Shown here: positions 1,147 to 22,036 of the stretch, in pieces | How positions within the stretch are numbered: position 1 is the stretch's first letter | Layout: each line of letters opens with the position of its first letter | Assembly (NCBI GenBank): GCA_964618705.1 | Contig: CAZUBJ010000002.1 | Coordinates: 1 to 46,523 of the forward strand | Direction: 5' to 3' | Length of the DNA stretch: 46,523 bases | From: an uncultured Candidatus Saccharibacteria bacterium | GTDB taxonomy: Bacteria > Patescibacteriota > Minisyncoccia > Phycocordibacterales > Phycocordibacteraceae | Translations under genes and position numbers: made by a program | Notes under the pieces: generated by a model | Database searches by the model: none | Told to the model about the DNA's origin: nothing | The model's input: only the letters and a program-made list of their open reading frames with translations

Positions 1147-2691
1147 CTACTCGAACCCAAACATGCCGCGCGGGCGATATTGGAGTGCCTCAAGAATGTG
1201 TTCAGTCTTAATCTCGTCGCTTTCTTCCAGGTCAGCAATGGTGCGCGCAACACGGAGCACTCGATGATATGCGCGCGGTGAGAGATTGAGTTTCGTATTG
1301 GCGGTGCTCAGTAAGTCGCGCACAGCCTCGCCTACAAAGTCGGGGCTATCAAGCTCCCGTGGAGAAAGTCGTGCATTCACGCACCCTCGAGCTTCTGCCC
1401 TGCCCCGCGCGCTCGCTACACAGGCGCGTACACTTGAGGACGATGCGCCCGTGCCTGCATTACGAAGCAATCCTTCGGGAAGGTGCGGCACTTCTACCCA
1501 CAGATCAAGACGGTCAGCAATCGGCCGAGATATCTTTCGCGACTGTTTCATTGCTTCGCGCACGCGCACCTCTGCATCTGCCGTGAGCGTGTCCGCGGGA
1601 TTCATCGCGGCAACTATCATGCAATCGGCAGGAAAGGTGATACTCGCTCGAGCACGCGAGACGGTCACCACTCGGTCCTCAAGAGGTTGGCGCAAAGCCT
1701 CAAGGGTGCGTGCATCGAACTCAGCAAATTCGTCGAGAAATAATACTCCGTGATGTGCCAGAGTCACCTCTCCAGCTTTTGGATATGCGCCACCGCCTAC
1801 AATCGCTGTGTGTGAAATGGTGTGATGTGGTGCACGGAACGGTGGATAGTAAAGAGCTTCCCCGCTGCGCAACTGCCCTGCAGTTGAGTGAATAGAAGTA
1901 ACTTCGAGCCGCTCACTACTTGAGAGTGGTGGCAGAATTCCAGGCAGCGCACGGGCCAGCATGGTCTTCCCTGTTCCGGGTGGCCCATACAACACAATGT
2001 TGTGTCTGCCGGCCGCTGCAATGATAAGCGCGCGCTTCGCACTTTCCTGCCCCTTTATGTCTGCCATATCAACAGCAAGAGGCGGTGGCGGCGCCTGTGT
2101 ATCAGGCCGAAGCTTCGGAAGAAGAATTGTTCCCGAAAGGTGCGCCACCAATTCCTTGAGTGTGTTTGGTGCATAGACTGAGATATCCGATGCAAGAAGT
2201 GCTTCGTGAGCATTGTGCGGGGGCACAAATACCTGCGTGATACCTGCGGCCCGCGCCGCTACCACCTGCGGCAGAACGCCCCGCACGCCACGTAGCGCTC
2301 CATCAAGCGCGAGCTCTCCTATGTAGAGGGTAGGTTCTGCTGGAAGGGTGAGGTGTCCTGCTGCGGCGAGATAACACAATGCAATCGGTACATCAAAGTG
2401 CGAACCCTCCTTCTTCAGATCCGCCGGAGACAGGGCCAGGACAATACGCTTATTCTCTGATTTGGGTGACTTGAATCCGCTGTGTTTAATTGCGGCCGCA
2501 ACGCGGTCTCGAGCTTCTTCGACTGCCTTATCAGGAAGGCCGACAATTGAGAACGAGTGGAGGCCACGGCTCAAATCAGCCTCGATAGTAACAAGTTCGG
2601 CGAGAGCGCCAACAGGCTGCGCAGCAACCAGTGTTGCGTACCCCTTCTTCTCATCTGTCTCGGCCGGCACGTTCTCAAACGTGATGTCCAT
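1147..2691 (-). CDS. comM: YifB/ComM-type Mg-chelatase-like AAA+ protein (competence-associated)
   Basis: Walker A GPPGTGKT and Walker B-like [10 protein letters not shown]-terminal Lon-like domain ([19 protein letters not shown]). ATG at 2691 is preferred over the GTG at 2715. Confidence 0.85.
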
Positions 2692-12336: not shown

Positions 12337-12411
12337 GCGCCCGTAGCTCAATGGATCGAGCACTTGTCTTCGGAACAAGGGATGGGGGTTCGATTCCCTC
12401 CGGGCGCACCA
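12337..12411 (+). tRNA. tRNA-Arg (anticodon TCG), CCA encoded
   Basis: Hand fold: acceptor GCGCCCG/CGGGCGC, D stem GCTC/GAGC, anticodon stem CTTGT/ACAAG with loop CTTCGGA, T arm GGGGG-TTCGATT-CCCTC, then ACCA. Confidence 0.9.
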
Positions 12412-12446
12412 ATAGTGAGCGTATGCCAGGTATACTGTTTCTCAGT

Positions 12447-13637
12447 ATGACCAAACTAAACACAAAGGAGCGGACGCGATTGCTTTCGGTGGCTAAGAAG
12501 TTTGGCACCCCGCTCTACGTGTACGACGCGGCTATGATTTCTGCGCAGTGCGAGAAGTTGAAGCGGAACTTCAAAGACACTAACTTTCATTACGCAATGA
12601 AAGCAAACTCTAATCCGCAGGTTCTTTCGCTTATCAAGAAGGCGGGGCTTGGGGTGGAGGCCGTGTCGATAGGGGAGCTTGAGCTCGCATTATCAATTGG
12701 TTTTCCAGCCTCGCGCATTAGTTTTACCTGCTCAAGCCTTACCGAGGCGGAGCTTGTGCATGTTGCCAATACCGGTGTACGCGTCCATTTGGATTCACTG
12801 CATCAGCTCCAGGTCTGGGGAACAAAGAAGCTCGGTTCCACAGCCTCTATTCGGTTGAATCAAGGAATTGGGGGAGGGCACCACGCACATGTGATTACCG
12901 GAGGTCCTGACAGCAAATTCGGCATTGTGTTGCGCGATGTGCCAAAAGCAAAAGCAATCGCAAAGAAGTACGGCGTATCCATAACAGGCATACAGCAGCA
13001 CATTGGCTCTAACGTGCTCGATATAAAGATTTTTGAGAAGTCTGTTCGGGTTCTGTTGGAAACAGCGAAGTCATTCCCGGATGTTGCGCACATAGACTTC
13101 GGTGGAGGTATTGGTGTTGCGTATGCGCCAGGCGCCGCATCGCTTCCGCTGGGAGAACTTGGTAAGCGCATGCGCTCACTCACCGGTAGCTTTCAGCGCG
13201 AGGTGAGACGCACGGTCGCGTTCTCTATGGAGCCGGGCCGGTTCCTCGTTGCTGAGGCGGGCACACTGCTCGTCTCAGTCACGGATATCAAATCAACAGA
13301 GAAGCATCACTTCGTCGGGGTCAATTCTGGATTCAATCAACTTATCCGTCCGGCCATGTATGGCTCGTATCATCCGATTGAGAACCTCACCCGTGCGCGC
13401 GGACCTCGTAAGTCGGTGACGGTGGCAGGGAACGTGTGCGAGTCGGGCGACATCTTTGCCAGTAAGCGATTGATGGTCGCTCCACAGATAGGGGATACGC
13501 TCGCCATACTTATTGCTGGCGCATACGGGTTCACGATGGCGTCTAACTACAACCTCCGAAAGTTGCCACGCGAGGTACTTCTGACCCCCTCAGGGGCAAA
13601 GGATATCTCGTTTGTACCAAGTACCCACGCTCGGTAG
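12447..13637 (+). CDS. lysA: diaminopimelate decarboxylase-like PLP enzyme (group IV decarboxylase)
   Basis: FGTPLYVYD, HYAMKANSN (PLP Lys), GGGIGVAY, EPGRFLVAEAG, CESGD. The start is the ATG at 12447 (alternative 12423). The listed 12351 start overlaps tRNA-Arg. Confidence 0.8.
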   Translation: MTKLNTKERTRLLSVAKKFGTPLYVYDAAMISAQCEKLKRNFKDTNFHYAMKANSNPQVLSLIKKAGLGVEAVSIGELELALSIGFPASRISFTCSSLTEAELVHVANTGVRVHLDSLHQLQVWGTKKLGSTASIRLNQGIGGGHHAHVITGGPDSKFGIVLRDVPKAKAIAKKYGVSITGIQQHIGSNVLDIKIFEKSVRVLLETAKSFPDVAHIDFGGGIGVAYAPGAASLPLGELGKRMRSLTGSFQREVRRTVAFSMEPGRFLVAEAGTLLVSVTDIKSTEKHHFVGVNSGFNQLIRPAMYGSYHPIENLTRARGPRKSVTVAGNVCESGDIFASKRLMVAPQIGDTLAILIAGAYGFTMASNYNLRKLPREVLLTPSGAKDISFVPSTHAR

Positions 13638-13680
13638 GTCTGGCCTAAGGCTGGGCTCCTGTGGTATCCTGCGTTTCAGC

Positions 13681-13751
13681 GCGGATATGGTTTAGTGGTA
13701 AAACGAGTCCTTGCCAAGGATTAGTCGGGAGTTCGATTCTCCCTATCCGCA
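13681..13751 (+). tRNA. tRNA-Gly (anticodon GCC), no encoded CCA
   Basis: Acceptor GCGGATA/TATCCGC, D stem GTTT/AAAC, anticodon stem AGTCC/GGATT with loop TTGCCAA, T arm GGGAG-TTCGATT-CTCCC, discriminator A. Confidence 0.9.
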
Positions 13752-14020
13752 CCCGAGCAGCAAAAGAACGCCAAAGGGCGTTCTTTTGCATTTATGCTCG
13801 GGTGCGGATAGAGCACGGTGTGGGATACCGTGCGTGGAGAATCGAAAGCCGGAAGCGCGACGGCGCCGAGGCGGGGTCGCGCAAAATCCCAGCAGGGATT
13901 TATGTGTGACCGATGCGTGACAGCGACTCTTCGAGCGAAGCGAGTTAGAGAAGCGGAACTTCTCCCTATCTCCGAACCAGGGGGACGAAAGTGGTAATCG
14001 CCGGTTCTCCCTCAAATCCT
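13752..14020 (+). repeat. tRNA-3'-end-linked element, copy behind tRNA-Gly(GCC); two tandem modules
   Basis: 16-bp perfect inverted repeat at 13744-13759 / 13795-13810. Inverted T-arm copy GGAGAATCGAA at 13836-13846. 31-nt and 44-nt blocks are shared with the 16261-16500 copy. A decayed direct copy of the tRNA 3' end lies at 13960-13977. A tail AAAGTGGTAATC..TTCTCC is shared with the tRNA-Pro copy. Confidence 0.7.
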
Positions 14021-14166
14021 CCATGTTCATAAGTGGGGACAAAGGTGTTAATAGTGGGGACAACTTTATAGGACAAGTGCCGTGTCTTTAGCGCTTGTCT
14101 GCAAAATAGTGAGTGTTTATATGCTTTTTCTCTCAGTCTGCCTATTGGTCTTGTATACTGAGGACT

Positions 14167-14565
14167 GTGACCGACATCTCCACACTCTCCACAAAAGAGC
14201 TTGGCGCCATGGGGGAGGAGGCCGCTGCTTTGTACTTAAAGAAGCAGGGATTCTCTATCGTGGATAGGAATGTGGTGCGCAAGACGGGAGAGATAGATGT
14301 GATAGCAAAGAAGAAAAGCACGCTCCATTTCGTAGAAGTGAAGTCTCGTATTTGTCGGGAATTCCCTCAGGATGATGCAGGAGATACCGCATTCGATCCC
14401 TCGGCAAACCTCCACAACGCGAAGATTAGTAAGGTTGCTCGAACAAGTGAGTGGTACGTAGCGGAGAAGGGGTGGGAAGGGGACTGGCAGGTGGATGGCC
14501 TCCTGGTATGGCTTCGAAGTCGGGATGGGGCTGCCTTTATCTCCTACCTCCCACAAATTCTATAA
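14167..14565 (+). CDS. YraN/UPF0102-family endonuclease-like protein
   Basis: LGAMGEEAAALYLKKQGFSIVDRNVVRKTGEIDVIAKKKSTLHFVEVKSR. The start is uncertain: GTG 14167 or ATG 14209. Confidence 0.7.
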   Translation: MTDISTLSTKELGAMGEEAAALYLKKQGFSIVDRNVVRKTGEIDVIAKKKSTLHFVEVKSRICREFPQDDAGDTAFDPSANLHNAKISKVARTSEWYVAEKGWEGDWQVDGLLVWLRSRDGAAFISYLPQIL

Positions 14566-14624
14566 ATCTGCTAGTATGGCTGAGAAAGAGGGACGCTAAG
14601 ATAGTCCGGGGAGGGTCGGTCGCT

Positions 14625-14699
14625 TGCACCGACGCACCCCGTTCGCTCGGCGAAACACCAAATATACGCTCCGCGTGCATTTGGTGTTTGCCTCACTCA
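14625..14699. repeat. CT-rich REP-like intergenic repeat, copy 3
   Basis: cgttcgctcggcg-AAACACCAAAT…ATTTGGTGTTT-gcctcactcac, with the same flank words as the other copies. Confidence 0.45.
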
Positions 14700-14770
14700 C
14701 GGGGTGTCGTATACCGGTAGTACGCTACTTTTGGGAAGTAGATGACGGAGTTCAATTCTCCGCACCCCGA
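14700..14770 (+). tRNA. tRNA-Pro (anticodon TGG), no encoded CCA
   Basis: Acceptor CGGGGTG/CACCCCG, D stem GTAT/GTAC, anticodon stem CTACT/AGTAG with loop TTTGGGA (G37), T arm CGGAG-TTCAATT-CTCCG, discriminator A. Confidence 0.85.
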
Positions 14771-14961
14771 CTACTTTTGAACGCAGTGAAAAATAGACGG
14801 GTGCAGCACTGTGTCTGCACACAGTGCGTGGAGAATTGAATGGCGGAACCTTATTTCAGTCAGCAGACTGAAATGGTGAGCCGGGCTCGCGAGCATTGTG
14901 AGTGACGACGAACAATGACTTGTGAGCAAAAGTGGTAATCCACGTTTCTCCGCACCCCGAC
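14771..14961 (+). repeat. tRNA-3'-end-linked element, copy behind tRNA-Pro
   Basis: Inverted acceptor copy at 14794-14804. Inverted T-arm copy GGAGAATTGAA at 14830-14840. Perfect 16-nt direct repeat TTCTCCGCACCCCGAC at 14756-14771 and 14946-14961. Confidence 0.7.
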
Positions 14962-14986
14962 AAATTTGTGCGAAGCAGTAGAAACA

Positions 14987-15019
14987 CAAAAGCCGCCCGA
15001 AAGGGCGGCTTTTGTTTTT
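14987..15019. terminator. bidirectional terminator
   Basis: CAAAAGCCGCCC-gaaa-GGGCGGCTTTTG followed by TTTTT. Confidence 0.85.
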
Positions 15020-15032
15020 GATCTAAGTCCGA

Positions 15033-16109
15033 TTACCGCATCGCGACTCCACCCAACACCTCCGTAAGTGTGGTGCGCAGTTCCTCGTTGCGTGCGGCAA
15101 TCTCTGCAAGCAAGTCAGCGGAGCGATAGGAAGCAAGATACTCATCAAGTGTGATGCCCATATCTTCCTCAAAACTCTCGCGCACGTGGCCGGCGGTAAC
15201 TGCACGCAGATCGCGCTCGCTAGGTGTGCCGCCTGTGGTGCTGGTGGTAATAAGTGCCACCATCTCGCCACGCGCGTTCACAATGCCGCCTCCAGAAGAG
15301 CCGTGCTGCGCAGCCTCACTTCCACCAAGGGATAGCAAGTCTACGCTCGTACGACCAAAGGTGTATACGTCGCGCACGGAGCCAAGCACCAGCGTAGGCA
15401 TCAGTGAGTCCTTAATCTGCGCGGTGGTAAGCGACTGTGCGCCGTATGAGCCAATAGCTACAGCGTCACCAATCTTTGGTGCGTTTACTCCAAAGGGCAC
15501 GTGCGCAAACTCGGTTGGAAGGGCAGCGCCTGTTGCTGAGCGAGTGATAGCAAGGAGCGCGATGTCGTTCTTGCCGTTTCCGCGAGGGTTCGCCACGACA
15601 AGGCTCGTGCTATTTGCTTCAACCCACGGCTTTGAAATATAGATAAGCTCCGCAAAGTATGCGGTGCGAGCCGGTGCGCCGGTGCGTACCACGCAGACTA
15701 CGTTGCCCTTGGTCGGGTGATTCTCAAGCAAGAAGAGCTGCGCAATGTGTGCGTTGGTGATTATCACGCCATCAGAGCTAATGACTACACCAGAGCCAGA
15801 AATAGACTTCACACCGCCATTCTTAGAGGCGCAGATAATATTCACCAGGGCGTCGGCCAGATTGTCCTTTGCGCCAGACAAATCAGCCGGCGGTGCTTCG
15901 CTGCGACTGGTAAGGCTACCAACTGCGGCAAGTTGTCCCTTCGCGGTCAGGGAATTAGCAAAGGATGGAGACCCATCAAAGAAACCGTAGGGCACAGGAC
16001 CCTCGGGCGCAGTGTTTGGTTTATCAAACAGATTGGTATAGAGCGCCAAGTACGCTATGACGGTTGCGACAACCAGCAAACCAGCCCAAGCAAGTAGGTT
16101 TTTTGACAT
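15033..16109 (-). CDS. membrane-anchored trypsin-like (S1) serine protease
   Basis: N-terminal TM helix. GSGVVISSDGVIITNAHI (His), NDIALLAI (Asp), GSSGGGIVNARGEMVAL (Ser). ATG at 16109. No PDZ-like tail is recognisable. Confidence 0.8.
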   Translation of the reverse strand: MSKNLLAWAGLLVVATVIAYLALYTNLFDKPNTAPEGPVPYGFFDGSPSFANSLTAKGQLAAVGSLTSRSEAPPADLSGAKDNLADALVNIICASKNGGVKSISGSGVVISSDGVIITNAHIAQLFLLENHPTKGNVVCVVRTGAPARTAYFAELIYISKPWVEANSTSLVVANPRGNGKNDIALLAITRSATGAALPTEFAHVPFGVNAPKIGDAVAIGSYGAQSLTTAQIKDSLMPTLVLGSVRDVYTFGRTSVDLLSLGGSEAAQHGSSGGGIVNARGEMVALITTSTTGGTPSERDLRAVTAGHVRESFEEDMGITLDEYLASYRSADLLAEIAARNEELRTTLTEVLGGVAMR

Positions 16110-16186
16110 ATACCTATTATACAGCATAATCACAAAAAGAAAAGCCCTCCACAGGGCCACGCAAGTATGCTATTCTCGTCTCTGAA

Positions 16187-16260
16187 GCGGGATTAGTTTA
16201 ATGGTAGAACTACAGTTTTCCAAACTGTTAGCAGGAGTTCGATTCTCCTATCCCGCACCA
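16187..16260 (+). tRNA. tRNA-Gly (anticodon TCC), CCA encoded
   Basis: Acceptor GCGGGAT/ATCCCGC, D stem GTTT/GAAC, anticodon stem ACAGT/ACTGT with loop TTTCCAA, T arm AGGAG-TTCGATT-CTCCT, then ACCA. Confidence 0.85.
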
Positions 16261-18349: not shown

Positions 18350-19255
18350 ATGACTATCACACAAACCTGGCGCACAAGCGCACTCATTGCTCTAGCCGTA
18401 GTGACCACCATGGTCGCAGCGCCCGCTGAAGCATTTGCCGCAGAGAAATGCGCATTCACGAAAGATTTGACCATTGGTCACGAAGGCGAAGAGGTGCGCT
18501 GTTTGCAGAAGTATCTAAACGCAAACGGCTACATCGTGGCCGCAACAGGTGTGGGCTCTACAGGAAAGGAGACAAGCCAGTACAAAGCACTTACGCAGGC
18601 CGCGGTGAAGCAGTGGCAGCTTGCAAACGGCATCATCCCGTCTACGGGCACTTTTGGTGCAAAGTCACGCGCGATGTACGCTACCCTTACTTCAGTAAGC
18701 ACTCCAACGGTACCAGTCGTAGTGCCAACCACTCCAACAGTGCCAAGCACCAGTTCGGTAGAGTCTGACACCAGAGAATCGCTCCTTAAGGCAAAGGACA
18801 GTCTAAACGAAATCAAGGACGATATTGACGAGGCAGAAGATGACGACAACGATATTGGAAATGCAAAAGAGTACTACGAAGAAGCACAAGAAGAGCTCTT
18901 TGATGCCTTCTATTACTTCTTGAAGCGTGAGTACGCAAACGCACTTGATAGCTCACTCACCCTTGCAAAGAAGATTCGTGACGCGCGCAACGAAATCCGC
19001 GAGAATATAGATGAGGAAGACAAGGCACGAGAAGCAATCGCAGACGCCGAGAACGCCATTGAAGACGCGCAGGATGCAATTGATGAGGCGGACGACCGCG
19101 GTAAGAACGTAAACGATGCAGAGGACTTGCTAGACGAAGCAAAGGACGCGCTTGAAGAAGCCGAGGACCTGCTTCGCGACGATGAGCTAGAGGACGCATA
19201 CGACCGCGCCAAGGAGGCTGAGCAGCTTGCCGAGGACGCAGAGGACGAGGTGTAG
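18350..19255 (+). CDS. secreted protein with a peptidoglycan-binding (PG_binding_1-like) domain and a long acidic helical tail
   Basis: Signal-like N-terminus (ALIALAVVTTMVAAPAEAFA). GHEGEEVRCLQKYLNANGY…AVKQWQLANGI. P/T linker. C-terminal ~170 aa extremely D/E-rich. Confidence 0.7.
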   Translation: MTITQTWRTSALIALAVVTTMVAAPAEAFAAEKCAFTKDLTIGHEGEEVRCLQKYLNANGYIVAATGVGSTGKETSQYKALTQAAVKQWQLANGIIPSTGTFGAKSRAMYATLTSVSTPTVPVVVPTTPTVPSTSSVESDTRESLLKAKDSLNEIKDDIDEAEDDDNDIGNAKEYYEEAQEELFDAFYYFLKREYANALDSSLTLAKKIRDARNEIRENIDEEDKAREAIADAENAIEDAQDAIDEADDRGKNVNDAEDLLDEAKDALEEAEDLLRDDELEDAYDRAKEAEQLAEDAEDEV

Positions 19256-19294
19256 CTCTCTGCACTCTAAATGACAGTGCTATGCTAGCAGCAT

Positions 19295-20050
19295 ATGATG
19301 AAGGAACTAGAGGATCTTGGGCTCTCTGAAAAGGAGGCACGCGTATACCTGGCATCTCTTGAAATTGGACGTGCAACGGCAGATCAGCTTGCTAAGCACG
19401 CAAATATTGTGCGGCCAACAACCTACGTGCAAATTAAAGCCCTCATGGAAATGGGGCTAATGAGTACGTACGAAGAAGGGAAAAAGACGTACTTTGCGCC
19501 AGAATCTCCGTCAGCGCTCAAGCGCCTGCTTGAAAAGAAGAAAGAAGCTCTGCGAACGAGTGAGTCGCTACTGTCCAGCATGCTCCCTGACCTCACTCGT
19601 CAGTTTGAGGGAGCGGGTGAGCGTCCGGTGGTTAGGTTTTTCCCCGGGAAGGAGGGTCTTGCTTCTGCGAGAGAAGAAATACTAACAACAAGGGAGAAAA
19701 AAGTTTATGCAGTATTTTCTCCGGAGCACATGTCAAGGATTTTTTCTTCGGAGTATTTGGACGACTACTCGGACAGAAGAAGGGCACTGGGGATTCATTC
19801 TGTTGGAATTTATAACCAAAAAGAAATGTTTGACAGAGCTGGGCTGGATCAGCTTACGGAACGAAGGCAGCTTCCCCCAGAGCTGGAATCGCTATCTGTA
19901 GACATATATATAACAGATAACAAAGTCACCATTCTTTCGCTAGAGGGAAGTTTATTTGGTTTCGTAATGGAGAGCGACCAGCTCGCCTCTAGCATGAAGG
20001 CAATATTTAGTTTTCTCTGGACATCATCATCTGGTCCAGATAGTAAATAA
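19295..20050 (+). CDS. TrmB-family transcriptional regulator
   Basis: LGLSEKEARVYLASLEIGRATADQLAKHANIVRPTTYVQIKALMEMGL, a winged-HTH N-terminal domain typical of TrmB. Confidence 0.75.
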   Translation: MMKELEDLGLSEKEARVYLASLEIGRATADQLAKHANIVRPTTYVQIKALMEMGLMSTYEEGKKTYFAPESPSALKRLLEKKKEALRTSESLLSSMLPDLTRQFEGAGERPVVRFFPGKEGLASAREEILTTREKKVYAVFSPEHMSRIFSSEYLDDYSDRRRALGIHSVGIYNQKEMFDRAGLDQLTERRQLPPELESLSVDIYITDNKVTILSLEGSLFGFVMESDQLASSMKAIFSFLWTSSSGPDSK

Positions 20051-20051
20051 A

Positions 20052-20277
20052 AATGGGGTCGGGAGTAAACTCCCGACCCCGAGCGGCTGAAAGCCGCTAC
20101 CACTTGACCGGTGACGGGTCTAGTTGCCGTCCCCGCCTCTGTTGAGATAGGTCAAGACCTACTCCTTCTCTCACGTTTGCCCAGTATTACCTGGGCGGTC
20201 ATCTGGCTACACGCTCCAGAGAACGAACATCTCACTTCCTTTCGGCTGGGCTGAAAACACTCCAAAACTGCCAGACC
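20052..20277 (-). ncRNA. candidate orphan small RNA (about 225 nt) defined by a promoter and an intrinsic terminator
   Basis: Minus-strand TTGACA-N17-TAGATT (plus coordinates 20311-20283). Minus-strand terminator GGGGTCGGGAG-ttta-CTCCCGACCC followed by ATTTTTATTT (20080-20045). The interior has at least five helices and no ORF. Confidence 0.4.
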
Positions 20278-20425
20278 ACACTAATCTAGCAGTGGCAACA
20301 CTTTTTGTCAAGATACTTAGTTAGAAAAGCACTTTTAATATAAATTGCACTGACGAATGTTTTGCGCGAAGTGCCTTATACCCACTGCATTTTCAGTAGG
20401 AAATATATCGTCATGTCAAAACATA

Positions 20426-20454
20426 TTGACAAAAAAAGTGCAAGGGTATATAAG
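20426..20454 (+). promoter_or_regulatory. sigma70-type promoter of the small-ORF cassette
   Basis: TTGACA-N17-TATAAG (also TATATA two nt upstream), set in an AT-rich divergent control region. Confidence 0.6.
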
Positions 20455-20661
20455 AGCTAAGTCAGCGCTGGCTGACAAGAGCTTTGACGTTTAAATACAA
20501 GTATTCGTTATTCCTATCCGGACAGATAGGCAAGTGTCAGGAACTCTCCGGCCCATTAAATGCCGGGCCTACTCACTATTCTGTCTGGTATAGGGATTGC
20601 GAAAGCAATTCCTGGGAATTTCCCATAAAGGGAAGACTGGCGCCCGGGGAGGGGCATAACT

Positions 20662-20856
20662 ATGAACATTGAAGAAGACTATGGCTTGAAGGAGCGCCGC
20701 CTTCGCGATCTCGAAAGGGAGGCGGACGAGCTCCTGCGCCAGGCTGGCTGCAACTTTGCTGGTGTTAACCGGCGGGATGTGGTCGCGAGCCAACAGGCTT
20801 TTGAACGCCTGGCGATTCGCACCCCGACGGGGGGAAAGTCCTGTCGGAGGCACTAG
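20662..20856 (+). CDS. small hypothetical protein (64 aa), cassette ORF 1
   Basis: GGGGAGGGG lies 7-8 nt before the ATG. The N-terminal half is charged and helical. Confidence 0.4.
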   Translation: MNIEEDYGLKERRLRDLEREADELLRQAGCNFAGVNRRDVVASQQAFERLAIRTPTGGKSCRRH

Positions 20857-20966
20857 CCGGTGCCACCTTGCCCTGCAGCGGGGTCACACTGCAGGTTGCT
20901 GGGTAGTCCACCAGCGTAAATGCATGGGCAAGATGCGCGGACATCTATAAAAGCCGCAAAAAGTAC

Positions 20967-20997
20967 GGGCAGACAAGAATGTGTCTGCCCCTTTATT
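20967..20997 (+). terminator. terminator/attenuator-like hairpin between cassette ORF 1 and ORF 2
   Basis: GGGCAGACA-agaatg-TGTCTGCCC followed by CTTTATT. Confidence 0.5.
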
Positions 20998-21032
20998 CAG
21001 CCTGCGAAATGGTTCGTGGGTTGATAGAGATA
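20994..21032 (+). repeat. 39-nt hairpin motif, copy 1 (12 nt upstream of the ORF 2 ATG)
   Basis: tattCAGCCtGCGAAatggTTCGTgGGTTGatagagata; 34/39 identical to copy 2. Confidence 0.6.
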
Positions 21033-21043
21033 CGGGGCTGTTG

Positions 21044-21412
21044 ATGAAAATTTTGAACCTTACGCAGCACGACGCCACGGCTGATCAGATCGCCGCCGGC
21101 GTGCTACCCGCAGGCTGTGAAAAAGAAGAGGTGCGCGAGCTCCTCACTTTTGACAGCCTGCCGAGCAGGGAGTGGATTGAGGCGAAGGCGCAAGCCCTCG
21201 CCGACGTCGCTCGTGCTCACGGGCCGCTCATCGACGCCGTCATGATCGGCGGCGCGCCCTATCTTATGGGGCCGCTCGAGCGCGCGTTGAAGGCGCAGAG
21301 TATCAAAGCCCTGTACGCCTTCTCGCTTCGTGAGAGCGGCGAGACGCCAGACGGAGAAGGTGGTGTGCGAAAGACGATGGTCTTTAAGCATGCCGGCTTT
21401 ATCGAGGCGTAG
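21044..21412 (+). CDS. hypothetical protein (122 aa), cassette ORF 2
   Basis: MKILNLTQHDATADQIAAGV… …VMIGGAPYLMGPLERAL…YAFSLRES…FKHAGF. It looks like a conserved small alpha/beta protein, but I cannot name the family. Confidence 0.55.
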   Translation: MKILNLTQHDATADQIAAGVLPAGCEKEEVRELLTFDSLPSREWIEAKAQALADVARAHGPLIDAVMIGGAPYLMGPLERALKAQSIKALYAFSLRESGETPDGEGGVRKTMVFKHAGFIEA

Positions 21413-21480
21413 CTGCCAGTGGGGAGTGGTGATCCTGACAACAGAATTCACCAAGGAGGACATTGCTACGTCCTCCTCCA

Positions 21481-21519
21481 TATTCAGCCCGCGAAACGGT
21501 TCGTTGGCTGATAGGGATA
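21481..21519 (+). repeat. 39-nt hairpin motif, copy 2 (5 nt upstream of the ORF 3 ATG)
   Basis: tattCAGCCcGCGAAacggTTCGTtGGCTGatagggata. Confidence 0.6.
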
Positions 21520-21524
21520 AAGCG

Positions 21525-21785
21525 ATGACCGATAAGAATGAAGAAGTTTTCTTTCAGGACTGGAAGCCAGGAAAGGGCCACCAGGAAATCTGCGTCTGGG
21601 TGAACAAGGACCCGGATGGGAACTTCTGGATCGCCATCGTCACCCGGGACGGCCGCTATCCGCGGTGGGAGACTAGTCGTGGCGCGATTGTCCGAACTCT
21701 TTCCGAAGCATTCGCCACTCTCAATGTGTGGCTCGGAGAACGCGATTGCGGGTGGAATATCGAAACAGAGGAGGAGGTGGAATGA
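21525..21785 (+). CDS. hypothetical protein (86 aa), cassette ORF 3
   Basis: The ATG at 21525 follows motif copy 2. The stop overlaps the next start (ATGA at 21782-21785). Confidence 0.5.
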   Translation: MTDKNEEVFFQDWKPGKGHQEICVWVNKDPDGNFWIAIVTRDGRYPRWETSRGAIVRTLSEAFATLNVWLGERDCGWNIETEEEVE

Positions 21786-22036
21786 AAAACCGGAATCCAA
21801 TCGCCAAGGCACTTCGGAGCCCAGCGCTCCGACAGCGCGTCGTGTCCGACAAGAAGAAGTGGTCAGACCGAAAAAAGGTGCGAAATTCGCTCAAATTGGG
21901 CAAGTACGATCGTGACCGATACGATTTGCCCCTCTTATTGAGACCGATGACATTCCGTCGTCGGCTCATCAGAGGCTTGATCTTTCATGCGCAATTCCGC
22001 CACCGTTCTCGTGCCCGTCGTCATGGGCATCGCTGA
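21782..22036 (+). CDS. ArfA-like (alternative ribosome-rescue factor A-like) small basic protein, cassette ORF 4
   Basis: NPIAKALRSPALRQRVVSDKKKWSDRKK compared with E. coli ArfA [29 protein letters not shown] (pattern N-x-I-x3-L-x2-P-x-[LF]-RQRV-x3-KK). Translationally coupled to ORF 3. Confidence 0.45.
   Translation: MKNRNPIAKALRSPALRQRVVSDKKKWSDRKKVRNSLKLGKYDRDRYDLPLLLRPMTFRRRLIRGLIFHAQFRHRSRARRHGHR

Follow-up and report, generated by a model that had tools for sequence, protein, structure and literature searches.

The window analyzed here is a 46,523-nt stretch of DNA from an uncultured Candidatus Saccharibacteria bacterium, and corresponds to contig C2 of a genome assembly that comprises 642,617 bases and is 97.35% complete. 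On its minus strand lies a predicted, structured transcription unit of approximately 230 nt, which occurs in a single copy in the genome and which runs tail-to-tail with a plus-strand gene encoding a TrmB-like regulator. The unit had been proposed, in a prediction made from the sequence alone (the original prediction), to be an orphan small-RNA gene lacking an open reading frame (ORF). We find that it contains an 11-codon ORF at 20155-20120 that is preceded by a Shine-Dalgarno (SD) site, and that the most conserved block of the unit consists of the SD site and a short ORF ending in G-D-G-X and a stop codon. A call of an ORF-less small RNA (sRNA) that is based on sequence alone can thus hide a conserved 11-codon gene. 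Homologous units lie beside orthologues of the regulator gene. Together they form a previously undescribed family of micro-ORF RNAs, each paired with a TrmB-like regulator, in members of the Patescibacteria that are of the Kaiserbacteria/Adlerbacteria kind. Our search of the literature, largely confined to sources other than subscription journals, returned no related descriptions.

The predicted transcription unit

The unit consists of the following features, given in the order in which they would be transcribed.

20311-20283, minus strand: extended -10, sigma-70-type promoter, with the -35 element TTGACA at 20311-20306, a 17-nt spacer and TGcTAGATT at 20291-20283 (10 of 12 positions match)
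20276-20270 / 20207-20201, minus strand: helix P1 of the 5' domain, GTCTGGC/GCCAGAT, enclosing a variable insert
20196-20191 / 20184-20179, minus strand: hairpin P3, GCCCAG-gtaata-CTGGGC, located 12 nt 5' of the SD site
20167-20162, minus strand: SD site AAGGAG, 6 nt before the start codon
20155-20120, minus strand: micro-ORF, TTG ACC TAT CTC AAC AGA GGC GGG GAC GGC AAC TAG, encoding MTYLNRGGDGN (11 codons plus stop)
20156-20150 / 20109-20103, minus strand: helix CTTGACC/GGTCAAG, enclosing GGGGACGG (20134-20127) and CCGTCACC (20117-20110)
20098-20092 / 20088-20082, minus strand: hairpin AGCGGCT-ttc-AGCCGCT, seen in the sequence and in the fold
20080-20055, minus strand: intrinsic terminator GGGGTCGGGAG-TTTA-CTCCCGACCCC, with 11 base pairs of which 9 are G-C, followed by ATTTTTATTT at 20054-20045

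This promoter-to-terminator layout agrees with the discrete unit envisaged in the original prediction. The TTGACA-17-TAGATT promoter is present as proposed, with a TG at 20291-20290, and is one of 2 promoter-like sites that a promoter scan found in 19000-21500, where 1.3 are expected. From the position of the promoter, the start of the small RNA is predicted to be near 20276. The terminator also stands, approximately 200 nt 3' of the promoter, with its 11-bp stem, and its T tract overlaps the TAA stop codon (20048-20050) of the plus-strand ORF at 19295-20050.

All of the helices that had been listed are present in the sequence. The region 20045-20280 has a predicted fold of -98.5 kcal/mol, compared with -78.1 +/- 4.6 kcal/mol in 200 shuffled sequences (z -4.46); none of the 200 shuffles is as stable, and the observation is therefore real and goes beyond what is expected by chance. 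The P1 domain (20201-20276) contains a CC-GAAA-GGAAG segment and an AUG mini-frame that is not conserved. The helix spanning 20103-20156 wraps the micro-ORF, and translation would therefore have to open it.

The short ORF in homologous loci

Because a blastn search with the small RNA matched none of 40 relatives, we sought homologous units by their synteny with the TrmB-like gene. Orthologues of this gene were taken from six genome loci (52-64% identity) and from the best 80 of 395 metagenome relatives. Three exact duplicates, one locus with too little flanking sequence and loci whose regulator gene extends past the contig end were left out before counting. This procedure gave 29 distinct downstream segments, the window included, in which the regulator is at least 47% identical to that of the window. 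In these segments we scanned for ORFs of 5-45 codons that follow a purine-rich SD-like run and have at least two Gly among their last six residues; no family-specific sequence was used.

Such an SD-led, Gly-rich short ORF is present in 28 of the 29 segments, versus 2.8 in shuffled sequences (at most 6) and none on the opposite strand. If the tail is required to be G[DGN]G, 26 of the 29 remain, versus 0.1 in shuffles. When the ORF scan was run over the whole genome, it returned the micro-ORF of the window and one other match only. Every close orthologue of the regulator gene is followed, on the strand opposite to it, by a homologous unit with a TTGAC...TGnTA promoter, a structured leader, an SD site, the short ORF, a variable 3' part and a strong terminator. 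This terminator adjoins the stop codon of the regulator gene, so that the arrangement is convergent, tail-to-tail. The conservation that the original prediction proposed to check was therefore found, as homologous units beside TrmB-like orthologues. No Rfam family matches the unit at its gathering score, but in its context the unit is not an orphan, since it is always convergent with one orthologous group of TrmB-like genes.

The 27 unique ORFs have these properties.

Length: 8-41 codons, with the tail keeping its place before the stop codon
Tail: GDG near the end in 19; only GGG near the end in 5
Start codons: ATG in 22, TTG in 3, GTG in 2
Stop codons: TAG in 11, TAA in 8, TGA in 8

Gly accounts for 75 of the 162 residues in the last six positions of these 27 ORFs, and the tail is written with four different Gly codons and both Asp codons. 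In the tree of the regulators, the clade that contains the window has 14 rows (support 100/99); 13 of these end in GDG-X, with the stop codon exactly one codon after G-D-G. More generally, the types of tail track well-supported clades of the regulator tree.

We compared the window most closely to its nearest homologue, L038, whose peptide is MTHLKRGDGQ. Between the two ORFs there are a synonymous AGA/CGA difference, three amino-acid changes and an indel of one codon. In a strain variant, found in a contig of run X8, the start codon at 20155 is GTG instead of TTG, codons 2-10 and the SD site are the same, and 4 of the 6 spacer bases differ. A rival AUG at 20230 has an A>C change in contigs of two other runs. 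Judging from these comparisons, the frame of the micro-ORF is under selection, and its translation is very probable.

Over the whole alignment with L038, mean column identity is 72%, with a gap of approximately 35 nt where L038 is without part of the P1 insert. The best-conserved block runs from P3 through the SD site and the ORF, while the 5' domain and the 3' part are strongly divergent. As regards covariation, P3 has one compensatory change, from GCCCAG/CUGGGC in the window to GCCCGG/CCGGGC in L038 (A-U to G-C), and GCCC..GGGC hairpins occupy the P3 position in other homologues. The double hairpin CGGG..CCCGA-CCCGA..UCGGGCUU, which is conserved in sequence in many other members, shows little covariation, with a double change in only 1 of its 7 pairs.

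A covariance model of this leader double hairpin (R1) did not lead to further members: when 150 other genomes from the class were searched, only 6 of them had matches, 7 in total and all weak, none of them beside a TrmB-like gene, five in seemingly coding regions and two that are copies of one repeat. The window itself is not matched by R1, because its leader has the second hairpin only. In the 3' part, the terminator stem GGGCCGGAAG...CTTCCGGCC is unusually conserved in L010-L012, L038-L043, L046 and L053, even though their regulators are only approximately 60% identical, and the window's terminator stem, GGGGTCGGGAG, is related to it.

The convergent regulator and a candidate operator

Three further features of the locus concern the regulator.

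19295-20050, plus strand: TrmB/TrmBL2-like regulator gene (251 amino acids), with a winged helix-turn-helix, a long helix and a PLD-like C-terminal domain
20414-20431, both strands: perfect palindrome TGTCAA-N6-TTGACA, a putative operator and the sole site with at most one mismatch in the 642,617-base genome
20293-20310, both strands: imperfect copy of the palindrome (2 mismatches), over the -35 element and spacer of the small-RNA promoter

The gene that the original prediction called trmB-like is convergent with the unit, and its product is a TrmB-family transcription regulator (PF01978, E 2.3e-12) with a TrmBL2-like fold; it is not a tRNA methyltransferase. The structural model has a pLDDT score of 78.4, and Foldseek matched it to TrmBL2 (5box, E 3.8e-13), to the sugar-binding domain of TrmB (2f5t, E 1.2e-6) and also to TrmB itself (3qph); the C-terminal half of the model matches PLD-like folds. 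As modeled, then, the protein appears to share with TrmB and TrmBL2 of the Thermococcales (3qph, 2f5t and 5box) the combination of a winged helix-turn-helix, a coiled coil and a PLD-like C-terminal domain. Unlike those proteins, it is bacterial, and it is only 17-19% identical to those chains.

On the plus strand, a promoter-like ATGACA-17-TATGAT (19271-19299) overlaps the ATG of the regulator gene (19295), which suggests that its mRNA is leaderless. At the other end of the gene, the hairpin that it shares with the small-RNA terminator is without a T tract on the regulator gene's own strand, so the regulator transcript may run antisense through the small RNA.

The perfect palindrome is also present in 13 of 28 homologous loci, and 19 of the 28 have it with 5-nt arms. 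Its right arm is the -35 element of a plus-strand promoter-like sequence, TTGACA-17-TATAAG, which in our reading is what the original prediction referred to as the promoter of a cassette. The imperfect copy is not above chance, as 1.86 sites with at most two mismatches are expected in the window, and it is suggestive by its position alone. In addition, 16 of 28 homologous promoters contain two TGAC tetramers that are exactly 13 nt apart. A regulatory link between the regulator and the unit is suggested by these sequence features, i.e., the strict convergent pairing, the unique perfect palindrome, the copy with two mismatches and the paired TGAC tetramers. To our knowledge, the candidate operator is not the motif used in the Thermococcales.

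Interpretation of the unit

The explanation that we favor, if only by somewhat more than even chance, is that the unit is a micro-ORF RNA, i.e., the mRNA of a micropeptide or a dual-function sRNA, and that it and the TrmB-like regulator belong to one local circuit. Known RNAs of this sort, which act as dual-function sRNAs or small-protein mRNAs, include SR1/SR1P in Bacillus subtilis, RNAIII/hld in Staphylococcus aureus and SgrS/SgrT in Escherichia coli. The unit resembles these in that a short RNA with much structure, flanked by a promoter and a terminator that belong to it alone, contains an SD-led small ORF. It differs from them in that its ORF is far shorter (11 codons in the window, 8-41 in the family), in that it is tied to a TrmB-like gene and in that it has no relation to them by sequence or Rfam family.

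In the mechanism that we propose, the strong extended -10 promoter would make the RNA, as its sequence and conservation indicate. The TrmB-like protein would control both the small-RNA promoter and the divergent plus-strand promoter by way of TGTCAA-N6-TTGACA-type sites. Ribosomes would translate the micro-ORF, to judge by the comparative evidence. The final step is speculative: the Gly-rich micropeptide would be the relevant product, most likely as a signal or ligand in the regulator's own circuit, and the structured leader would tune its translation.

A more specific version of this mechanism is a self-contained peptide-regulator circuit of these ultra-small, episymbiotic bacteria, in which the ribosomally made peptide of 8-41 residues, ending in G-D-G-X, is the ligand of the PLD-like sensor domain, and in which the regulator controls both the peptide's RNA and the divergent operon through the unique operator. 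We regard this version, too, as possible but doubtful, and its central element, the peptide as ligand of the regulator, is speculative. Rgg/SHP and ComR/ComS are peptide-regulator pairs of Gram-positive bacteria, with regulators of the RRNPP/tetratricopeptide-repeat kind and hydrophobic peptides. Like them, the present locus has a tiny peptide gene next to a regulator gene (convergent with it in some classes of those systems), and the conserved part of the peptide is the C-terminus. Unlike them, it has a TrmB/TrmBL2-like regulator and Gly-rich, basic peptides, and no exporter or importer was seen nearby. If the circuit exists, it would be the first peptide-sensing regulator of the TrmB family and the first autoinducer-like module to be described in Patescibacteria.

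These organisms have tiny genomes and almost no characterized regulation, and their small RNAs and small proteins are essentially unannotated. The recurrent module, in which a TrmB-like regulator is paired with a convergent, structured RNA that contains a Gly-rich micro-ORF and with a palindromic control region found only once in the genome, escapes gene callers as well as Rfam. It offers a testable entry into regulation, and possibly peptide signaling, in the Patescibacteria.

It is important to consider several points that weigh against the micro-ORF interpretation. Translation of the micro-ORF is deduced solely from the comparison of loci; the regulator is a candidate for binding at the palindrome, and its recognition of the peptide is speculative. 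The loci are relatives of one another, and some are the same contig in two collections, such that the counts overstate their independence. One RNA library holds 9% of the sequence words of 19300-21000, and the sole contig that can be placed (191 nt, depth 2) maps at 20427-20617, beside the unit and not on it; such contigs cannot show absence. This contig may represent carry-over of DNA. The predicted fold leaves the SD site and start codon only slightly more accessible than the remainder of the RNA (mean probability of being unpaired, 0.47 and 0.62, respectively, versus 0.37). No such peptide was met in any database, where a search with the sole peptide of sufficient length (41 amino acids) matched only itself. 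No export signal was found in the peptides, and no conserved modifying enzyme or transporter was found nearby.

Codon usage is a further point of this kind. In the tail, GGC is used for 63 of 75 Gly codons, versus 118 of 364 (32%) in the neighboring regulator genes, and GAC for 18 of 20 Asp codons, versus 147 of 295 (50%). The bias implies a constraint at the level of nucleotides or codons, in addition to that on the peptide. It could reflect a codon-specific role, or avoidance of internal SD-like sequences (GGAGG or GGGGG) and of out-of-frame AUG in GAU-GG.

Alternative explanations

The first alternative, which we regard as possible but doubtful, is that what matters is the act of translation rather than the peptide. 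In this case, the Gly and Asp codons (mostly GGC GAC GGC) before the stop codon would sense the charging of tRNAs, the state of the ribosome or a small molecule, and occupancy of the ORF would change the folding or stability of the RNA, or antisense read-through into the TrmB-like gene. The layout is indeed reminiscent of a leader: an SD site precedes a short ORF in which one amino acid predominates toward the end, hairpins are numerous and the terminator is strong. Moreover, the tail stays at a fixed distance from the stop codon, whereas the N-terminal part differs between loci both in its length and in its sequence, and the codon bias is marked relative to neighboring genes (84% GGC and 90% GAC). 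Ribosomes would have to open the helix around the ORF, and in every locus the T tract adjoins the stop codon of the regulator gene, such that any read-through would be antisense to that gene.

However, the unit is not followed by any gene in its own orientation; what lies beyond it, both in the window and in every homologous locus inspected, is the antisense of the TrmB-like gene. In a purely thermodynamic model, the pairing of the terminator was unaltered in 15 of 15 transcripts when a ribosome footprint was placed at the Gly codons, at the stop codon or over the whole ORF; for the window, its pairing probability is 0.99-1.00 whether the ORF is masked or not. The distance from the stop codon to the terminator varies from 15 to 155 nt. 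The codons for GDG pair with downstream sequence no better than they do in shuffles (median z -0.26, with 6 of 28 at p<=0.05). The codon bias, finally, can be read as the avoidance of internal SD-like runs or of out-of-frame AUG.

The classical form of this idea, a leader-peptide attenuator, is not supported, and we rejected it: the SD-led, Gly-rich ORF is present, but the thermodynamic model gives no ribosome-dependent terminator and no regulated gene lies downstream. The trp attenuator rnTrpL/peTrpL of Sinorhizobium is reported to be a leader-peptide attenuator that gives rise to an sRNA (PMC7968998). Our unit is similar to attenuators of the rnTrpL type in having a short ORF with one amino acid overrepresented toward its end, together with hairpins, an intrinsic terminator and possibly a free small transcript. 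It differs in that it is without a downstream gene or a ribosome-sensitive alternative to the terminator, and in that the enriched residues are Gly and Asp.

A second alternative, and the one put forward in the original prediction, is a purely non-coding, structured sRNA that acts by base pairing or by binding a protein, with the SD-like site and the frame being incidental to its structure. The strong predicted structure fits such an RNA, as do the hairpins conserved 5' of the SD site, with their one compensatory change relative to L038, the double-hairpin motif of other members, the unusually good conservation of the terminator sequence among homologues and the GGC/GAC bias. We nonetheless consider it improbable. 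An SD-led, in-frame, Gly-rich ORF recurs in 28 of 29 loci as against 2.8 in shuffles, length changes preserve the frame, the start codons TTG, GTG and ATG interchange and all three stop codons are used, while the RNA sequence is poorly conserved outside the block of SD site and ORF. The genome has no CsrA above cut-off, which makes a sponge based on GGA motifs unlikely, and we rejected a CsrA sponge on this ground.

A still less probable explanation is that the micro-ORF encodes the precursor of a modified or exported peptide, either a ribosomally synthesized and post-translationally modified peptide (RiPP) or a pheromone, similar to Rgg/SHP or streptide systems. In its favor, a small peptide gene adjoins a regulator gene. 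The core of streptide is KGDGW, and distant members of our family end in GDGSGW (twice in L051), GDGW, GGGY or GDGGY. However, within approximately 1.5-2.5 kb on each side, the unit has no conserved gene for a maturase, such as a radical-SAM enzyme or a protease, or for an ABC exporter; the neighboring genes encode instead small proteins without a family, ClpP, RNase Y and, in 5 loci, a PilB-like ATPase. In addition, the peptides have neither a leader nor a signal sequence, and the genome comprises only 0.64 Mb.

Comparison with known RNA families

The Rfam search foreseen in the original prediction was carried out and, at gathering scores, found four tRNAs over the window and nothing else. 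The original prediction had remarked that a segment vaguely recalls helix 8 of the signal recognition particle (SRP) RNA without fitting it, and the poor fit is borne out. Neither RF00169 nor RF01854 has a match at E<=10 in 19900-20500 or, over the whole genome, at E<=1, the searches for Ffh and FtsY were likewise negative, and the helix-8-like segment is missing from L038; we therefore rejected an identity as SRP RNA. The 6S RNA model, RF00013, likewise has no match at E<=1 in the genome. 6S RNA folds as a rod with a central bubble, and the minimum free energy fold of our unit is multi-domain and not a rod. RNase P RNA (119.3 bits) and transfer-messenger RNA (tmRNA; 99.1 bits) were located on other contigs, which eliminates both as identities of the unit.

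That the unit is a housekeeping RNA (SRP or 6S RNA) so divergent in this phylum as to be missed by the Rfam models is thus very unlikely. In favor of such an identity, the searches of the genome revealed neither an SRP nor a 6S RNA, the unit has roughly the expected size and CC-GAAA-GGAAG faintly resembles SRP helix 8. Against it, the module is sporadic (a close orthologue of the partner was found in 1 of 120 other genomes of the genus, and blastn matched 0 of 40 relatives), whereas a housekeeping RNA should be widespread; an Ffh or FtsY partner was not detected, the helix-8-like segment is absent from the closest homologue and the fold is not rod-like as expected of 6S RNA.

The lack of SRP matches extends beyond this genome. 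Models PF02978, PF00448 and TIGR00959, for Ffh and FtsY, have no match in the genome, and none of its six-frame ORFs has both a P-loop and a DTAGR-type motif. PF02978 matched 0 of 41 relatives and 0 of 151 genomes of the phylum (the genome of the window being in both sets). The control searches gave matches in 14 of 14 known genomes. Either the phylum is without a recognizable SRP or it has a divergent SRP that the searches missed. The literature that we searched contains no statement on a lack of SRP in this phylum.

With loose thresholds in 19900-20500, cmscan reported a match over 187 nt to sR035 (RF02760), at 25.4 bits and E 8.2e-5. sR035 is an sRNA of Yersinia pestis (PMC3770706). We attribute the match to chance: the score is far below the gathering score of 233 bits, 0 of 17 homologous loci match at E<=0.1 and the organism is unrelated.

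Distribution

Of 120 other genomes in the genus, one has a close orthologue of the regulator (64% identity); the 15 further matches, all with at most 36% identity, represent paralogues. Paralogous TrmB-like genes of the same genus (26-36%) were considered as possible carriers of the unit, and 4 of their 18 downstream segments have a Gly-containing short ORF, none of which is like those of the family. Among 400 other genomes of the class, 28 have a homologue of the regulator at E<=1e-45 (35-47% identity), and two of these, at 47% identity, carry MNIGGDGGY and MKIGGDGGY. Beside the distant homologues (35-47%), Gly-rich tiny ORFs are found in 6 of 12 metagenome segments and 13 of 28 class segments, versus 2 and 10, respectively, on the other strand, and one distant clade is better described by another ORF, which is longer and conserved at its N-terminus. 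The distant loci do hold convergent promoter-to-terminator units; their ORFs differ, and we are unsure of their homology to the family.

A pattern search in 400 other genomes of the phylum yielded 27 matches, versus approximately 23 in a reversed control, with no TrmB-like gene at any of them, and we interpret these matches as chance; the pattern used was unfit for the window's own GGG variant. In viral contigs, no relative of the TrmB-like regulator was found. Members of the module occur in metagenomes from groundwater, wastewater, drinking water and soil. DNA of the window region itself is present in groundwater, wastewater and drinking-water runs, where only large shares were counted. In one drinking-water run, a contig of 6,662 nt matches both flanks and has 545 other letters in place of the 483 at 19641-20125, so that this strain has a divergent allele, which affects the regulator in its C-terminal half and the RNA in its 3' part, terminator included.

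Neighboring genes and other observations

In several homologous loci, the module lies beside clpP and the gene for RNase Y, which in the window are approximately 3-5 kb away. The genes on the divergent side, which the plus-strand promoter-like sequence would drive, differ from locus to locus, and include several families of small proteins without an assigned function and, in 5 loci, a PilB-like ATPase. In the window, the nearest is an ORF of 64 amino acids (20662-20856, plus strand), which has no Pfam or NCBIfam match and has relatives at the same divergent position in L011 and L057. The RNA contig at 20427-20617 covers a long, leader-like region between the palindrome and this ORF. Other small protein families in the divergent position comprise one of 73-77 amino acids, present in 5 loci, and one whose N-terminus is rich in Cys and His, present in 3 loci. 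In L043, positions 1506-1612 (plus strand), again on the divergent side, weakly match the Thr operon leader RF00506, at 30.7 bits versus a gathering score of 55 (E 0.086).

Farther downstream in the window, the ORF at 20981-21412 (plus strand) has a weak match to the CRISPR-associated protein Csx20, scoring 25.2 bits where the cut-off is 70 (E 1.7e-5). Next come overlapping ORFs in different frames (21330-21785 and 21616-21915) that have no family match, and the region 20981-21915 may be a broken or mis-assembled gene. The four tRNA genes of the window start at 12337, 13681, 14700 and 16187, all on the plus strand, and lie among ORFs within 12337-16257.

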